This document shows, piece by piece, positions 4,136-12,407 of a stretch of 24,000 nucleotides of DNA (positions are counted from its first letter, which is position 1; every line of letters starts with the position of its first letter). The position numbers and the translations under genes are program-made. The notes below the pieces were generated by a model. The model did no database searches. It was given only the letters and a program-made list of their open reading frames with translations, and was not told the DNA's origin. Source of the DNA: Acetobacterium tundrae. GTDB lineage: Bacteria; Bacillota; Clostridia; Eubacteriales; Eubacteriaceae. Where the stretch lies: the NCBI RefSeq assembly GCF_008086615.1, contig NZ_RXYB01000012.1, positions 30,075-54,074 of the forward strand, written 5' to 3'.

Positions 4136-4882
4136 ATGATTTTTTATTTTAGCGGAACCGGAAATTCTAAACATGTTGCTAATAAAATTGCGAAAGGAAC
4201 AGGTGAAAGGCTAGTCGATATTTCTGAAAGCATCATTGAGAAAAATGAGACATATGAAGTCGAAAAGAATGAAAAAATTGGATTCGTTTTTCCTGTTTAT
4301 TGGTATTGTATGCCAAAAATAGTTGAGAAGTTTATAGTACAGCTAAAATTATCAGGATATCGGAAGCAATATGTTTATGCAATAACAACATATGGGATAG
4401 CTGCGGGAAATGTGATGGACAGATTAATCCAAACCTTAAGAAATAAGCAAGTGCAATTAAATGGAATATTCGGCGTACAGATGATTGACAATTATGTGGT
4501 GGGATATAATATTATTAATATAGATAAACAAAGCACTATTTTGAAAAAGGCTGAGGTGGAAATAGATAAAATTATGTTGATGATCGAGTATCGAGAAAAT
4601 ATTGAATATATAAAAAAGGGAAGTATCCGGTTTGTTACTCCAATTACTGGATATGGCTATAGAAAAGCCAATCATATTAAGAAGTTTTTTGTTACACAAA
4701 AATGTAATGGTTGTAAACAGTGTGAAAGTAGTTGTCCATGCAATACAATACATATGATGGATGGAAAACCTATGTGGTTAGGGGAATGTACATTCTGTCT
4801 AAAATGTATTAATGGATGCAAACAATCAGCAATTCAGTATGGTAAATTCACTGAGAAGAGAGATAGATATCAGTATAAATGA
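4136..4882 (+). CDS. Flavodoxin-like / 2x[4Fe-4S] ferredoxin fusion (EFR1-type)
   Basis: N-terminal MIFYFSGTGNSKHVA is a flavodoxin-like phosphate-binding loop. C-terminal Cys clusters are CNGCKQCESSCP and CTFCLKCINGC. Confidence 0.75.
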   Translation: MIFYFSGTGNSKHVANKIAKGTGERLVDISESIIEKNETYEVEKNEKIGFVFPVYWYCMPKIVEKFIVQLKLSGYRKQYVYAITTYGIAAGNVMDRLIQTLRNKQVQLNGIFGVQMIDNYVVGYNIINIDKQSTILKKAEVEIDKIMLMIEYRENIEYIKKGSIRFVTPITGYGYRKANHIKKFFVTQKCNGCKQCESSCPCNTIHMMDGKPMWLGECTFCLKCINGCKQSAIQYGKFTEKRDRYQYK

Positions 4883-4894
4883 AAAAGGAATATT

Positions 4895-5728
4895 ATGTTT
4901 AAAAACGAATTGGTCAGCAAAGCCATCGATTATATTGTAGAAAATTTAAATGAGGAAATCTCCATTGAAGATGTAGCAGCTTATTGTCATCTTTCCAAGT
5001 ATTATTTTTGCAGAGTTTTCAAGTCAGAAACAGGTGAAAGCATTTATGGGCTTATCAAACGTTTGAAAATGGAACAAAGCGCCATCGAAATGAAGCTGTT
5101 AAAAGATAAATCCATTACCGATATCGGCGTTACCTACGGATACAGTTCATCGAATTACAGTTCAGCATTTAAGAAGCACCATCATGTTTCACCTGCGGCA
5201 TTTCGAAAAAATGTGAATATGAACAGTGCCCCCCATCCTTTTATTCTGGAAAAGAAGGCGACGTTTCAATCATTTGATGAATATAACCAACAGATTCAAA
5301 TAAAGGATTTGGATAATTTTAAGGTCATCTATGAACGGTATCTGGGAAATTACCTTGATCTGGGAAAAAACTGGTCTGAATTCACCGAAAAATATCAGAA
5401 TTATTTCAGAGAAGAGACCCTTTTGATTGAACGGTTCTTTGATGATCCTTCCATCACAAATGTTGGGCAATGTTTATATGACATCTGTATGACGGTCGAC
5501 ACAACCTGTCCCCTTGAAAATGTTATGACGATTCAGGGCGGAAAATTTGCCGTTTACAGCTTTGATGGGTTGATACCGGATATTTTTGAAGCTTTTCAAG
5601 GCGTATTTAATATCTGGATGCCAAACAGTGGTTATGAAATGGACGAAAGATATGGACTTGATATTTATCGCAAAATTGACAGAGATAAGCAGCATGTTGT
5701 TATGGATTTATGCATACCAGTTAAATAG
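4895..5728 (+). CDS. AraC-family regulator with GyrI-like effector-binding domain
   Basis: Two HTH units (IEDVAAYCHLSKYYFCRVFK, ITDIGVTYGYSSSNYSSAFKKHHHVSPAAFRK). The C-terminal half is GyrI-like (GGKFAVYSFDG, PNSGYEMDERYGLDIY). Confidence 0.85.
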   Translation: MFKNELVSKAIDYIVENLNEEISIEDVAAYCHLSKYYFCRVFKSETGESIYGLIKRLKMEQSAIEMKLLKDKSITDIGVTYGYSSSNYSSAFKKHHHVSPAAFRKNVNMNSAPHPFILEKKATFQSFDEYNQQIQIKDLDNFKVIYERYLGNYLDLGKNWSEFTEKYQNYFREETLLIERFFDDPSITNVGQCLYDICMTVDTTCPLENVMTIQGGKFAVYSFDGLIPDIFEAFQGVFNIWMPNSGYEMDERYGLDIYRKIDRDKQHVVMDLCIPVK

Positions 5729-6732: not shown

Positions 6733-7530
6733 ATGAAAAAGATGTATCAGGAAGCAGATGATCAACTGAAATCTCAGATTCTTGACCAAATTCCAACTCC
6801 AGTCATGGCAGTTAACAGAGAGCTTAAAGTGATCTATATGAATGAAGCGGGAAAAAAACTCCTAAAGAAATCTGCGGACAATATTATTGGTTTAGCCTGT
6901 AAGGATTTAATTGCGACTGAGCAGTGTGGTACTGAACAGTGTGGTATGCTGAAAGCTATCAGTGACGGCAAATCTTTTAGCGGTCGTACTGAAATCAATA
7001 CTGGAGAGAACAGGATCCAGGTTGAATATTCGGTTGTACCTTTGCAGGATGACAGCGGTGAAATTATCGGTGGCGTTGAATTTATCATGGATATCACCGA
7101 ACGTGTTTTATATGAGAATCGGCTTAAAGAACAGAGCCATACCATCCGCGAAATGTCAACACCGACGATTAAACTCTGGGAAGGCGTTCTGGTTCTGCCA
7201 GTTGTTGGTGTGGTCGACTCCCTGCGAGCCCAGCATATGATGGAAAGCATGTTGAATAAAATTGCGGAAACTTATTCAAAAGTGATTATTCTGGATATCC
7301 ACGGTGTTGCGGCGGTGGATACGGCCGTTGCCAATCATCTGATTAAAATCACTAAGGCAACCAAACTCATGGGCTGCGAATGCATCTTGTCAGGAATATC
7401 TCCGGCAGTCGCTCAGACGATCATACAGTTGGGAATTGATATGGCAGCTATCAATACCCAGGCAACACTCAGTGACGCTCTTTCAGAAGCGTTCATTATC
7501 CTGAGTCTGGAAGTTATTACAAAAGAATAA
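6733..7530 (+). CDS. rsbR: RsbR-like stressosome sensor (N-terminal PAS, C-terminal STAS)
   Basis: AAAGGAGG RBS. PAS region PTPVMAVNRELKVIYMNEAGKKLL...GGVEFIMDITER. STAS region STPTIKLWEGVLVLPVVGVVDSLRAQ...DIHGVAAVDTAVANHLIK. By my by-eye alignment, Ser/Thr sit at the positions of B. subtilis RsbRA T171/T205. Confidence 0.85.
   Translation: MKKMYQEADDQLKSQILDQIPTPVMAVNRELKVIYMNEAGKKLLKKSADNIIGLACKDLIATEQCGTEQCGMLKAISDGKSFSGRTEINTGENRIQVEYSVVPLQDDSGEIIGGVEFIMDITERVLYENRLKEQSHTIREMSTPTIKLWEGVLVLPVVGVVDSLRAQHMMESMLNKIAETYSKVIILDIHGVAAVDTAVANHLIKITKATKLMGCECILSGISPAVAQTIIQLGIDMAAINTQATLSDALSEAFIILSLEVITKE
6916..6945 (+). repeat. 15-bp tandem duplication inside the PAS domain (TEQCG x2)
   Basis: ACTGAGCAGTGTGGT / ACTGAACAGTGTGGT, with one synonymous difference. 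Confidence 0.9.
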
Positions 7531-7545
7531 TAAAGAGATAGGATT

Positions 7546-7923
7546 GTGAAGCACATGACTATAGAAGGTTATAACATATCCATAACGGTAATCGATAACA
7601 ATTTCATTGTGGTACTTCCGGAAGAAATGAACAATGTGACTATCGGAAAAATAGAAAGTATGGTGACGGAGAAAGCCTACCAAAACGAAATTAATGGTGC
7701 CATCCTTAATTTTTCGATGGTTTCTGTCATGGACACTTATACCTATCGTGCTTTTGAACGTATAACTGATGTTTTTTCACTGATGGGGATTCATACTGTA
7801 TGGGTCGGTTTGCGCCCAGGGGTTGTTTCAGGACTGATGGATTTAGATATTGCCGTCAATTTGAAAATAAAAATGGCGTTGAATCTTGAACTTGGTTTAG
7901 TATTGATTGATCGTGACAGATAA
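7546..7923 (+). CDS. rsbS: RsbS-like single-domain STAS protein
   Basis: 125 aa. ...NGAILNFSMVSVMDTYTYRAFERITDVFSLMGIHTVWVGLRPGVV... aligns by eye with B. subtilis RsbS, with Thr at the Ser59 position. The start is uncertain (GTG 7546 or ATG 7555). Confidence 0.8.
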   Translation: MKHMTIEGYNISITVIDNNFIVVLPEEMNNVTIGKIESMVTEKAYQNEINGAILNFSMVSVMDTYTYRAFERITDVFSLMGIHTVWVGLRPGVVSGLMDLDIAVNLKIKMALNLELGLVLIDRDR

Positions 7924-8396
7924 TGAACCGAAGTAATGATCCGTTTGAAATAGAAGCCGATGCAAAGAATAAGATCATCGAAACAAAAAAATTAGACCTG
8001 ATTTTGAGTCACGATAATGAGAACGTTGTGTTTTCAGTTCGTCAAATTGCAAACAAAGCAGGATTCAGTTTGATTGATGAAGTCCTGATCGCTGTGGCAG
8101 CATCTGAGTTAGCCACGAATATTCTGCGTTATGCTGGAAAGGGATCGATCAAAATAAATATTATCTGCGATGTCGTCAGCGGAATTACTGGCATTGAGCT
8201 TCTGGCAAATGATGCTGGACCGGGAATTAAAGACATTGAACTGGCTCTGCAGGAAAATTACAGCACACAGGTCAACAGTTTGGGGCAGGGTCTCCCCAGT
8301 GTAATTAAAATTATGGATGAATTCCATATCAAATCTGAATCGGGAAAAGGAACTCGTATTCTCACCCGAAAATGGCTAAAAAACGAAGAAAATTAA
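7923..8396 (+). CDS. rsbT: RsbT-like GHKL serine/threonine kinase (switch protein)
   Basis: The start overlaps the rsbS stop (TAATG). N-box ELATNILRYA, G1 NDAGPGI, G2 GQGLPSV, 157 aa. Confidence 0.85.
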   Translation: MNRSNDPFEIEADAKNKIIETKKLDLILSHDNENVVFSVRQIANKAGFSLIDEVLIAVAASELATNILRYAGKGSIKINIICDVVSGITGIELLANDAGPGIKDIELALQENYSTQVNSLGQGLPSVIKIMDEFHIKSESGKGTRILTRKWLKNEEN

Positions 8397-8532
8397 GTGC
8401 ATAATTGAAATGGAAACATCGCTGAGGATGCCGATATAATTGCAGAAGGTATTCTTTATTAACCGAAAAAAATAATATGCTCCCTCTATTCAGATGGAAT
8501 AGATAATATATGGACAAAATGGAGGTTGTGTA

Positions 8533-11289
8533 ATGATTGAACTGGGCCAAATTAAAGTTGACTCCAATAATTCCATGATTGAGGCTAGAAAAAAAGCACG
8601 CTCAATTGCTTTGAAACTGGGCTGTTCAGAAGTGACTGCCACTCGGATTGAAGCGGCAGTGTCAGAAACAATCAGACAGCTTCTTGACAGTATGATGACG
8701 ATTGATTTTGCCGTTTCAGTTAAAGAATCTGTTGGGGAAATTCCAATCAGAAATGGTATCAATATCATTTTTGACAATTTTGATTATCCGCTCAATCCGG
8801 ATTTTAAAGCGCAGCATTTTGAAAATTTTGTTTCTTCTGAAACGGTAAATGGAAAATATACATTCACAATCTTTTTACCTTTTATCACGATCGATCCGGA
8901 TTTTAGCTATTCTCTGGTCGAAGAATTGAAGAGCGAAATTGAATCGCCTTCCAAAGAGGAACTGCTAAAAGAAATTGAGTGCAAAAACATCGAGCTCGCA
9001 AATAGCAGGCAGTTTATGGAATCGGTGCTGGAAAATCTACAGGCTGCCGTTTATGCAAAAGATTTAAATGGCAACTACACCTATATCAACCGGCACTGGG
9101 AAGAAGCAACAGGTCACAAACGGGATGAATGTATTGGCCGAACCGCAAAAGAAGTTTTTTCGTCAGACGGAGAGGCGTATGACCAAAACGATCAGGATGT
9201 CATTAAGTTACAGGAAAACCAGGTAACCGAGGAATATTCCATAAAGGACAAGCAGAAACGGACCTACCAATCAACCAAGGTGCCAATGAAACAAAACGGA
9301 GATATTGTTGGGATATGCAGTATTTCCACGGATATCACGCAAAGAAAAAAAATGGAGGAGGAATTATTTGAAGCCAAAATTCTTGCTGAAGAAGCGGCGG
9401 AATCTAAATCTTATTTTCTGGCCAATATGAGTCATGAGATACGCACACCGATGAATGCCATATTGGGAATGAGCTATCTCATCCAGAAAACCGATCTGTC
9501 GATAAAACAGCAGGACTATGTTAATAAAATACAGCAGTCAGGACAGCACCTGCTGGGTATTATCAATGATATTTTGGACTTTTCAAAAATTGAAGCTGGC
9601 AAACTAAATATCGAATCCATTGATTTTAAACTCTATGAAGTGCTGGATAACCTCTCCAATTGCAACAGCGAGAAATGCCTTGCCAAAAATCTGGAGCTAG
9701 TGTTTGATGTTGATCCGGATGTACCTAATGAATTATGCGGTGATCCGCTGAGAATCGGACAAATCCTGATTAACTATGTAAACAATGCAATTAAATTTAC
9801 TGATCGGGGAAGAATTACGGTTAGAATTAGAAAAGATAAAGAATTTTCAGATGGATTTCAGCTTAAATTTGAAGTTCAGGATACCGGAATCGGTTTGAAA
9901 GAAGAGCAGCAGTCAAAACTCTTCCAATCATTTCAGCAGGCTGATATATCCACAACCCGGAAATATGGCGGAACAGGTCTTGGCCTTGCCATTTCCAGGA
10001 AATTGGCAACTTTAATGGGTGGTGAAGTTGGTGTGAAATCCGAATTTGGAAAAGGCAGCATTTTCTGGTTTACCACCCATTTTAATGTCACCGAAAAAGT
10101 TTTGAAATCCAATGTTCCCTATCCTAGCTCTGACAATCCCTGGGTTATGTATGAAACCGAACTTGGAATTCCTAAAAAAAGCTGTAAGCTTGAACCGGAA
10201 AAAAGAAGTCTGGATTCTGTCACGGGTCAAAAGAATCTGCAGGACCTTTGCAATGCGAAAATTCTGCTGGTGGAAGATAATGAACTCAATCAGGAAGTTG
10301 CCGTTGAAATCCTCAGGGATGTGGGATTACAGGTTGATATAGCCGCCAATGGCGAAATTGCAGTTGCAATGGTTGATCAAAAAAAATATGATCTGGTGCT
10401 GATGGATATGCAGATGCCAGTTTTAGATGGGCTTGAAGCCACAAGACAAATCCGTTCCAACAATCGGTTCAGGAATCTGCCAATTGTAGCGATGACTGCC
10501 AATGCAATGGCCGGTGATCGGGAACAATGTCTTGCCGCCGGAATGAATGATCATTTACCGAAACCGATTGTACCTGGAGATCTTTTCAAAATGTTGGTTC
10601 GATGGATACCGTCATTCAATCATACTCCGTATTTATTTGAACGCCGTATCGATATTGTCCATGAGGATCCATTGGATCAGGAGGACATTAGAATAAGCGG
10701 GCTGGATATCGAACTGGGTCTTGGTCACGTCCTGGGAAAGAAAAAATCCTACAAGAATCTCCTACGAAAATTTGCTTCAGGTCAAAAAAACGTAATAGAT
10801 GATATTCGAAAATCAATCAATAATGGAGATTTTAACACGGCGGAACGGCTTGTACATACACTGAAGGGTGTTACTGCCAATATTGGAGCGATGGAAATAA
10901 ATAAAAATGCCGAAATCCTAGAAACAGCTATCAGAGAAGAACCTGCCAGTGAAGCATTAAAAACGTTAATTCAAAATATTGATCTGCCATTAAAAAATTT
11001 GATTACTGCTCTAAAAAAACAATTGCCTGAGAAAGAGAACGCCATTAAGGTTAACTTTTCCGTAACCTCAAACTTGGCCCTGATTTCTTTTCTGGAAGAA
11101 CTCATGCAGTATATTCGGGTCCGAAAGCCAAAAAGATGTTCAGAAGTAATTGAATCCCACTATGAAATTTGCTGGCCGGATGAACTCAAAGACGAAGCAT
11201 CTGATCTCTATCAATTTATTTCAAAATATCAATTTAAGGAAGCTGCTGAAAAGGTGGAGTCCTTATTAATCAGATTAAGTGAGGTTTGA
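8533..11289 (+). CDS. Hybrid sensor histidine kinase: novel N-domain, coiled coil, PAS, HisKA, HATPase_c, REC, HPt
   Basis: GGAGG lies 7 nt upstream. H-box [14 protein letters not shown]-box [11 protein letters not shown]1 DTGIGL, G2 [13 protein letters not shown] segment ILLVEDN...[13 protein letters not shown]...KP. HPt motif [12 protein letters not shown]. Confidence 0.9.
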
Positions 11290-11291
11290 TT

Positions 11292-12407
11292 ATGAAAGTA
11301 TTATCGGAATGTACTGTTTTAATTGTGGATGATACGGAAATCAATATCGATATTCTGGTCGAAGCTCTGGGTGATGATTATGAACTGTCTGTGGCCATGG
11401 ATGGGGAATCCACTCTCGAAATTGTAAAAATGGAACGGCCGGATTTAATTTTGCTGGATATCATGATGCCGGGAATGAGCGGATATGAGGTGTGTAAAAA
11501 ACTTAAAACAAATGCTGCAACATCCGATATACCGATCATTTTCTTGACTGCCATGACAGATATCGAAAGCAAAAGAAGAGGATTTGAAGCAGGTGCAGTC
11601 GATTACATCACCAAACCGTTTGAAATACTCGAGGTGAAGGCGCGTGTACAGACCCATCTGTTCATCACGATGGCAAGGAATGAACTGGCCATGCAGAACG
11701 AGATCCTTGAAAAACGGGTTGCTGAACGAACCAGGGAATTATGTCTGACTCAGGAAATTACCATAGAAGCCCTAGCTTCGCTTGCTGAGTATCGGGATCC
11801 TGATACAGGCGGGCACATCGAGCGTACTAAGAATTATGTGCGAATTCTTGCCGAAAAGTTGAGTACCTATGAAAAATATAAAACGATTCTGAATGACGAA
11901 GTCATTCAGATTTTTTACAAATCGGCACCGCTTCATGATATCGGTAAAATTGGAATACGAGATGATATCCTCCTTAAGCCGGGAAAGCTGACACATGATG
12001 AATTTGAAGAGATGAAACGGCATACTGTTATCGGTTACGAGGCACTCCGCATTGCAGCGTTAAAACTAGGCGAAAATTCATTTCTTAAACATGCCATGGA
12101 ATTTGCAAAATACCATCAGGAAAAATGGGATGGTTCTGGTTATCCCGATGGTCTCTCAGGGTATGACATTCCCCTTGCCGGTAGAATCATGGCGATTGCG
12201 GATGTCTATGATGCGCTCATCAGTAAAAGAGTCTACAAACCGCCTTTTACACATAAAAAAGCAGTCGAAATTATCAAGGAAGGCAGAGACAGTCATTTTG
12301 AGCCATTAATGGTAGATGCATTTCAAGAAGTACAAGAATTGTTTCGGCAAATCGCGATTAAATATGCAGATTATCCTGAGGAATTAATAGCCTTGAATGA
12401 AAAATAG
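11292..12407 (+). CDS. Response regulator with HD-GYP domain (RpfG-type c-di-GMP phosphodiesterase)
   Basis: GAGG lies 7 nt before ATG 11292; TTG 11286 overlaps the HK stop. REC segment VLIVDD...LILLDIMMPGMSG...KP. HD-GYP motifs HDIGK and HQEKWDGSGYP. Confidence 0.9.
   Translation: MKVLSECTVLIVDDTEINIDILVEALGDDYELSVAMDGESTLEIVKMERPDLILLDIMMPGMSGYEVCKKLKTNAATSDIPIIFLTAMTDIESKRRGFEAGAVDYITKPFEILEVKARVQTHLFITMARNELAMQNEILEKRVAERTRELCLTQEITIEALASLAEYRDPDTGGHIERTKNYVRILAEKLSTYEKYKTILNDEVIQIFYKSAPLHDIGKIGIRDDILLKPGKLTHDEFEEMKRHTVIGYEALRIAALKLGENSFLKHAMEFAKYHQEKWDGSGYPDGLSGYDIPLAGRIMAIADVYDALISKRVYKPPFTHKKAVEIIKEGRDSHFEPLMVDAFQEVQELFRQIAIKYADYPEELIALNEK

Follow-up and report, generated by a model that had tools for sequence, protein, structure and literature searches.

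In the 24,000-nucleotide stretch of Acetobacterium tundrae DNA analyzed here (contig NZ_RXYB01000012.1, positions 30,075 to 54,074; hereafter, the window), five co-oriented genes encode RsbR, RsbS, RsbT, a hybrid histidine kinase, and a receiver–HD-GYP regulator. The RsbR (sensor and STAS domains), RsbS (STAS domain), and RsbT (kinase) genes are adjacent and constitute a stressosome module. Profile alignments and a predicted structure identify residues 1 to ~135 of the histidine kinase (8533–8940) as a GHKL serine-kinase domain that descended from RsbT. This unannotated pseudo-RsbT input domain probably connects the stressosome to the output. We infer that it does so by docking directly on the stressosome, so that the stressosome and the kinase are physically coupled by a mechanism in which the roles of RsbT are split between two proteins, and we put the probability of this reading at roughly 0.5.

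Alignments of the N-terminal domain were built from 12 close homologues and 20 loci taken from genome and metagenome collections. Residues 1–152 of the kinase had no Pfam match even at E ≤ 1 and no NCBIfam match, and the 12 homologues likewise gave noise only. Nothing significant was found when PDB sequences were searched by hidden Markov models (HMMs) built from two N-domain alignments; a weak match to the catalytic and ATP-binding (CA) domain of YycG (E 0.49) does not count as evidence. When the N-domain and RsbT alignments were compared by hhalign, the match extended over the whole kinase fold (probability 93%, E 3.4e-7, 107 columns, 6–112 on 25–153). An AlphaFold2 monomer model based on a 14-sequence alignment had a predicted local distance difference test score (pLDDT) of 80.8 and a predicted template modeling (TM) score (pTM) of 0.75, with the element order β1-α1-α2-β2-β3-β4-β5-α. 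In a Foldseek search of this model against the PDB, the top 16 matches were all SpoIIAB, RsbW, or UsfX (probability 1.00, TM 0.45–0.73), followed at far lower probability by histidine-kinase CA domains; RsbU-N structures were not among the matches. The core comprises β1 (MIELGQIKV), α1 with R19, K21, and R23, α2 with R38, S44, E45, R48, and Gln49, then β2, β3, a short loop, and β4-β5.

These results agree with the first-pass annotation, made from the letters alone, which had described a degenerate RsbW/RsbT-type GHKL domain at the kinase N terminus; the residues that it quoted are found at the coordinates it gave, and two of the checks that it had proposed, one by profile–profile comparison and the other by Foldseek with an AlphaFold model, returned the GHKL kinase fold. 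Its estimate of ~150 residues can be refined: the globular part covers ~120 residues and is followed by a helix (residues 126–137) and then a conserved linker. It had also judged the domain not to be RsbU-N, correctly so: the model has five strands, and the RsbU-N-like four-helix bundle that it had named as a contrary outcome was not seen. An RsbU_N identity (PF08673) was rejected, given the lack of a Pfam match and an hhalign probability of 0.09% against bona fide RsbU_N sequences (verified by PF08673, E 1.3e-19). Three metagenome loci (L017–L019) aligned to residues 7–51 only (40–42% identity) and encode true HATPase_c_2 serine kinases, in which the N, G1, and G2 boxes are all intact. In one of them (L019:506-1774), a 423-amino acid protein carries the intact RsbT-like kinase at its C terminus, preceded by ~280 uncharacterized residues.

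To locate the differences from RsbT, the pseudo-domains were aligned by MAFFT with 28 free RsbTs from three operon kinds and three fused RsbT-like domains (the fused L037 row was left out). The pseudo-domain aligned with RsbT without gaps from β1 to β3 and again at (M/F)-D-x-F and the β4-β5 hairpin. Between these regions, a 21-column gap spanned the G1 box along with the first part of the ATP lid, and an unrelated short loop replaced G2; the G1/lid/G2 stretch has 14 residues in the pseudo-domain compared with 34 in the window RsbT, a deletion of ~20 residues. The catalytic Asn and the DxGxG box, both of which the first-pass annotation had called lost (SETIRQ and FDNFDYP), are indeed absent, with Gln49 in AVSETIRQ and IIFDNFDYP at the DxGxG strand. 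The N-box Asn occurs in 16/16 aligned cognate RsbTs and in none of the 14 aligned pseudo-domains; the 136 family representatives vary at the G1 positions and usually have I, S, or L at position 49, where Asn is never the predominant residue. The window N-domain had no match to Pfam HATPase_c_2 even at E ≤ 10; weak precomputed PF13581 matches exist for a few members of the family. Having lost the N-box Asn together with the G1 box, the lid, and the G2 box, the N-terminal domain is a pseudokinase by this alignment and is predicted to be unable to bind or hydrolyze ATP. The N-box residues S44, E45, and R48 are kept, as they would be in a still active kinase that binds nucleotide in an unusual way, but the Mg-binding Asn is missing family-wide, G1, lid, and G2 are missing as well, and at E ≤ 1 the window protein lacks the HATPase_c_2 match, making such an activity very improbable.

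The origin of the domain was addressed by profile searches. Among 400 other Bacillota genomes, the domain profile gave six matches only (E ≤ 1e-5), all of them RsbT genes in R-S-T-X-RsbU_N operons. Genuine RsbT genes also matched the domain HMM in Desulfobacterota, with lower E values (3e-12 to 6e-9) than in Bacillota (3e-7 to 1e-5). The local domain HMM gave 31–49 bits for canonical RsbTs, 0–17 bits for the operons' own RsbTs, and 0–11 bits for the other HATPase_c_2 kinases of the genome. RsbW/SpoIIAB as the nearest relative was rejected on the grounds that only RsbT genes were retrieved in Bacillota and that the genome's other HATPase_c_2 kinases reached at most 11 bits. By these comparisons, RsbT, and neither RsbW nor SpoIIAB, is the source of the pseudo-domain.

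Intermediates were found in a second operon type, present in Desulfobacterota (L036–L045; G434, G441, G645, G698, G736, G757, and G784) and arranged as R-S-T-[RsbT-like::PP2C]-[RsbT-like::kinase], with three RsbT-like domains per operon. As in the window, the fused domain is N-terminal in an effector encoded after the stressosome genes and is followed by a similar linker; unlike the window domain, these domains retain the N, G1, and G2 boxes in full or in part and reach the HATPase_c_2 threshold. The fused kinase-type domain of L041 is intact (ARN, DHGPGI, and GLGMGL; HATPase_c_2 54.8 bits), and that of L038 is half-decayed (ARD and KSKGIGI; 33.6 bits). A maximum-likelihood tree separates a clade of pseudo-domains (Shimodaira–Hasegawa-like approximate likelihood ratio test [SH-aLRT] 100) from a clade of cognate RsbTs (SH-aLRT 97), and the two subtrees are congruent. 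A branch with an SH-aLRT of 88 places the intact and half-decayed fused forms on the side of the pseudo-domains. The root, sought with the genome's other small kinases, is unreliable because of their long branches, so the order of events is inferred. The occurrence of RsbT-like fusions in the same operon position suggests that RsbT-like domains may serve as stressosome-docking handles.

Pseudo-domain numbering coincides with that of Bacillus subtilis RsbT, so residues can be compared directly. In the following counts, the three-kinase operons are the second, Desulfobacterota operon type, and the fused domains are the intact or half-decayed RsbT-like domains.
Position 19: Arg in 6/6 canonical RsbTs, 6/6 RsbTs of three-kinase operons, 3/3 fused domains, and 132/136 pseudo-domains; 0/19 cognate RsbTs (V, I, A, T, or M instead).
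Position 38: Arg in 6/6 canonical RsbTs, Lys in 6/6 RsbTs of three-kinase operons, Arg in 3/3 fused domains and 125/136 pseudo-domains; Arg in 0/19 cognate RsbTs (L, M, or Q instead).
Position 48: Arg in 6/6 canonical RsbTs, 6/6 RsbTs of three-kinase operons, 3/3 fused domains, 108/136 pseudo-domains, and 5/19 cognate RsbTs.
Position 49 (catalytic): Asn in 6/6 canonical RsbTs, 6/6 RsbTs of three-kinase operons, 2/3 fused domains, and 19/19 cognate RsbTs; never predominantly Asn in pseudo-domains.

The window RsbT fits this pattern, with Val, Leu, and Thr in place of R19, R38, and R48, respectively. The pattern looks like subfunctionalization, one paralogue having kept catalysis and the other the switch surface. 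In B. subtilis RsbT, R19, R23, and N24 are implicated in binding the partner RsbU (Hardwick 2007, as cited in PMC12143880).

The genes and domains of the locus, all on the forward strand, are as follows.
6733–7530, + strand: RsbR-type co-antagonist with a PAS sensor and a STAS domain (Pfam PAS_4 2.9e-17, STAS 4.3e-16); syntenic in L001–L008.
7546–7923, + strand: RsbS-type STAS antagonist (Pfam STAS 2.5e-8); upstream of RsbT in L001–L007.
7923–8396, + strand: cognate RsbT, a GHKL Ser/Thr kinase that looks active (Pfam HATPase_c_2 5.3e-8).
8397–8532, + strand: spacer of 136 bp at the rsbX position of relatives, with a promoter-like site (8411–8440) and GGAGG (8521–8525).
8533–11289, + strand: hybrid histidine kinase of 918 amino acids (open reading frame; GGAGG at 8521–8525 lies seven bases before the start codon).
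8533–8892, + strand: pseudo-RsbT core, residues 1–120 (alignments, AlphaFold model, Foldseek).
8908–9012, + strand: C-terminal helix (residues 126–137) and conserved signaling linker (DSSP of the model; conservation).
9013–9348, + strand: PAS domain, residues 161–272 (Pfam PAS_4 5.4e-18).
9406–10077, + strand: HisKA (residues 292–356) and HATPase_c (403–515), the kinase catalytic core (Pfam 7.4e-22 and 1.5e-27).
10261–11013, + strand: receiver (residues 577–688) and Hpt domain (743–827) of the hybrid kinase (Pfam 3.8e-28 and 4e-10).
11286–12407, + strand: response regulator with an HD-GYP-type (HD_5) output (Pfam Response_reg 2.1e-28, HD_5 3e-27); overlaps the kinase stop codon.

The window RsbT retains an N box (ATNILRYA), a G1 box (DAGPGI), and a G2 box (SLGQGLP). 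It also has an extra N-terminal extension of ~20 residues (7923–8000; MNRSNDPFEIEADAKNKIIETKK), which is shared with other Acetobacterium cognate RsbTs and not with canonical RsbTs. In L008, the window RsbS query had no match, yet an RsbS open reading frame is present at 4539–5018. The response regulator–HD_5 gene is syntenic in L001–L006. L007 has it upstream of rsbR, encoded on the other strand; the L008 sequence ends earlier. A longer phosphorelay than that of the window was found in a metagenome-assembled genome (MAG; L057:5290-7778), where a single receiver, a receiver–Hpt protein, and a receiver–kinase come after the pseudo-RsbT kinase.

Gene order was compared across 21 distinct full-length loci (L001–L011, L013, L014, L031–L035, and L056–L058, the last three including Marinobacter fonticola and a Desulfobacterales contig); L016 and L028–L030 repeat L008, L006, and L007 and were not counted. 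The rsbS-rsbT pair lies directly upstream of the pseudo-domain gene in 21/21 loci, from Bacillota, Desulfobacterota, Marinobacter, unclassified MAGs, and metagenome contigs, and an RsbS homologue is also found upstream in every other locus whose sequence extends far enough. In all but three loci, rsbX is upstream as well, and the pseudo-domain gene begins a few bases past the rsbX stop codon. The rsbX gene (PP2C, ~195 amino acids) is present in L002–L008 and all more distant loci and absent from the window, Acetobacterium paludosum (L001; 89% N-domain identity), and L009. Instead of rsbX, the window and A. paludosum have a 136-bp spacer with a promoter-like site (TGGAAA-18-TATAAT in the window); in L009, the kinase gene begins within three bases of the rsbT stop codon. 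Across the whole genome of the window (99.99% complete), RsbX homologues were not found, although four other SpoIIE-family PP2C phosphatases are encoded elsewhere in it. In Moorella-type Bacillota operons, the slot after rsbX is occupied by an RsbU_N protein, which makes the pseudo-RsbT domain positionally equivalent to RsbU_N.

An exhaustive profile search showed that the family is large, comprising 337 clusters at E ≤ 1e-3, of which 128 also pass E ≤ 1e-10, and that the pseudo-RsbT domain almost always starts at residue 1. Among 75 full-length representatives, the outputs were 67 histidine kinases (36 with receivers and 23 with Hpt domains), four class III cyclases, and one each of SpoIIE (PP2C), GGDEF, and HD_5 (HD-GYP-type); Marinobacter has GGDEF-EAL versions. 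Across the 136 representatives, the invariant positions of the family are M1, L4, G5, R19, K21, R38, S44, E45, R48, F96, and D97, with S44 kept in 128/136 and a linker Ser/Thr in 121/136. Whether or not the output is a kinase, the linker retains the motif S-[RK]-x-E-L...K-N-x-E-L. Where the linker enters the DHp helix directly (P0013–P0161), S-[RK]-x-E-L and the H box are 31, 38, 45, or 52 residues apart, and these one-heptad steps argue for a continuous signaling coiled coil. The pseudo-RsbT domain and its coiled-coil linker constitute a modular N-terminal input unit. One metagenomic protein (P0014, 552 amino acids) has two tandem pseudo-RsbT domains before HisKA/HATPase_c, the second from about residue 131 (two profile matches). 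The named homologues found were from Halioglobus, Marinobacter, Desulfobacterales, Myxococcota, Caldithrix, WOR-3, Atribacteria, and Binatia, with no Vibrio among those listed. No description of such an RsbT-like/histidine kinase or of a stressosome-pseudokinase domain was found in the full-text paper library searched.

Compared with known systems, the domain is closest to RsbT of the B. subtilis and Moorella types (HATPase_c_2), with which it shares the β1-α1-α2-β2-β3-β4-β5 order, the operon, and the motifs A-R19-x-x-x-R23, G-F, R38-I/L-A/E-T, S44-E45-x-x-R48, and (M/F)-D-x-F. Unlike RsbT, it lacks the N-box Asn, the G1 DxGxG, the lid, and G2, is ~20 residues shorter, is fused to an effector through a coiled-coil linker, and falls below the Pfam threshold. 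With RsbU-N (PF08673; RsbU and Moorella MtG), it has in common the slot after rsbS-rsbT-rsbX, the N-terminal placement, the coiled-coil linker, and PP2C, GGDEF, or kinase outputs, whereas its α/β GHKL fold is unrelated to the RsbU-N helical bundle (hhalign 0.09%). The sigB-less loci of Vibrio vulnificus and Vibrio brasiliensis (rsbRSTX with a D1 kinase and D2; PMC9237108 and PMC4976288) resemble the window in that the stressosome is wired to a two-component kinase and cyclic di-GMP (c-di-GMP) enzymes, not to sigma-B; their RsbR sensor is a globin, compared with PAS in the window, and rsbX is missing in the window. Heinz et al. 2022 (PMC9237108) reported that most stressosome downstream proteins, including the Vibrio downstream kinase, have no RsbU_N domain, detected no interaction between VvRsbT and VvD1, and left the link between stressosome and output open.

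Tentatively, and slightly short of even odds, we propose that, in sigB-less stressosome operons like that of the window, two paralogues now share the roles of RsbT, with free RsbT acting as a kinase only and the switch half residing in the dead GHKL domain fused to the effector, so that the output enzyme itself would be bound to the stressosome and no diffusible messenger would be involved. Free RsbT would retain catalysis, and the fused pseudo-RsbT would retain the ancestral arginine-rich partner-switching face (R19, R23, R38, and R48). The pseudo-RsbT domains of a kinase dimer would dock on unphosphorylated STAS domains of RsbS and RsbR, keeping the kinase inactive. A signal at the RsbR PAS domain would lead RsbT to phosphorylate the STAS domains, whereupon the pseudo-RsbT domains would be released and would pair. 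This pairing would reach the DHp domain by way of the linker, with its heptad register, and the PAS domain, and the change there would feed a His-Asp-His-Asp relay to the HD-GYP regulator and alter c-di-GMP.

The first-pass annotation had suggested two roles for the domain, STAS binding in competition with RsbT or heterodimerization with RsbT; the comparative evidence leans toward STAS binding, and so toward direct docking on the stressosome over docking on RsbT. Direct docking is favored because it is the shortest evolutionary path from intact RsbT::kinase fusions such as that of L041 and because it explains the kept arginines; the reported absence of a VvRsbT–VvD1 interaction would be consistent with it, if VvD1 is of the pseudo-RsbT type. 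The R19/R23 face of RsbT is reported to bind the stressosome as well; PMC11821858 makes no mention of this. Several points weigh against direct docking. In the SpoIIAB–SpoIIAA complex, the ATP lid is reportedly part of the STAS interface, and canonical kinase–substrate docking may be impossible because the lid is deleted in the pseudo-domain. The absence of RsbX from the lineage of the window leaves the reset of such a switch unexplained, and the reciprocal loss of arginines may go back to one event in the past and not to repeated selection, because the cognate RsbTs form one clade. Likewise, the negative VvRsbT–VvD1 result may apply only if VvD1 carries a pseudo-RsbT domain.

The same evidence can be set against two other explanations. 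Rather than docking on the stressosome, the pseudo-RsbT domain and linker could act as an RsbT receptor analogous to RsbU-N, to which freed RsbT would bind, perhaps as a GHKL pseudo-homodimer, ordering the coiled coil and activating the kinase. SpoIIAB and RsbW are homodimers, so a paralogue would be a natural dimer partner. A change of output partner would also be expected to alter the α1/α2 surface of the cognate RsbT, which is systematically altered (R19 to V/I/A/T and R38 to L/M/Q), and the operon position, N-terminal placement, coiled-coil linker, and output spectrum are as in RsbU_N proteins (PMC12143880). The congruent subtrees of the pseudo-domain and the cognate RsbT fit as well, but they are equally explained by co-inheritance in one operon. 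Such a receptor requires a new interaction, whereas the intact RsbT::kinase fusions (L041) suggest ancestral stressosome binding, and the lack of a VvRsbT–VvD1 interaction in Heinz 2022, if applicable, also speaks against it; we regard it as rather unlikely.

Still less probable, at perhaps one chance in eight or so, would be a domain without direct stressosome contact, serving as a dimerization or scaffold module only or as a substrate (for example, at S44 or linker S140) transiently phosphorylated by RsbT, as Heinz et al. (PMC9237108) proposed for the Vibrio downstream kinases. The conservation of S44 and of the linker Ser/Thr is in line with a substrate, and the heptad-quantized linkers show that the dimer state of the domain matters. 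However, S44 belongs to the inherited N-box SE motif, which is invariant in active RsbTs too, and needs no new role, and a mere dimerizer would leave the strict rsbS-T-X synteny across 21 loci and the kept RsbT-specific surface arginines unexplained.

The route by which signals pass from stressosomes lacking RsbU and sigma-B to two-component and second-messenger enzymes is an acknowledged gap. The RsbT-derived pseudokinase is a concrete, testable candidate for this missing link, given its N-terminal position in the outputs, its cross-phylum synteny, and the reciprocal division of residues with RsbT, and it adds a bacterial case of a GHKL pseudokinase as a signaling adaptor. The pseudo-RsbT domain could enter Pfam/InterPro, which would improve the annotation of several hundred protein clusters. 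If the split of RsbT is true, the histidine kinase, cyclase, PP2C, or GGDEF enzyme would itself be a stressosome-bound component of partner switching.

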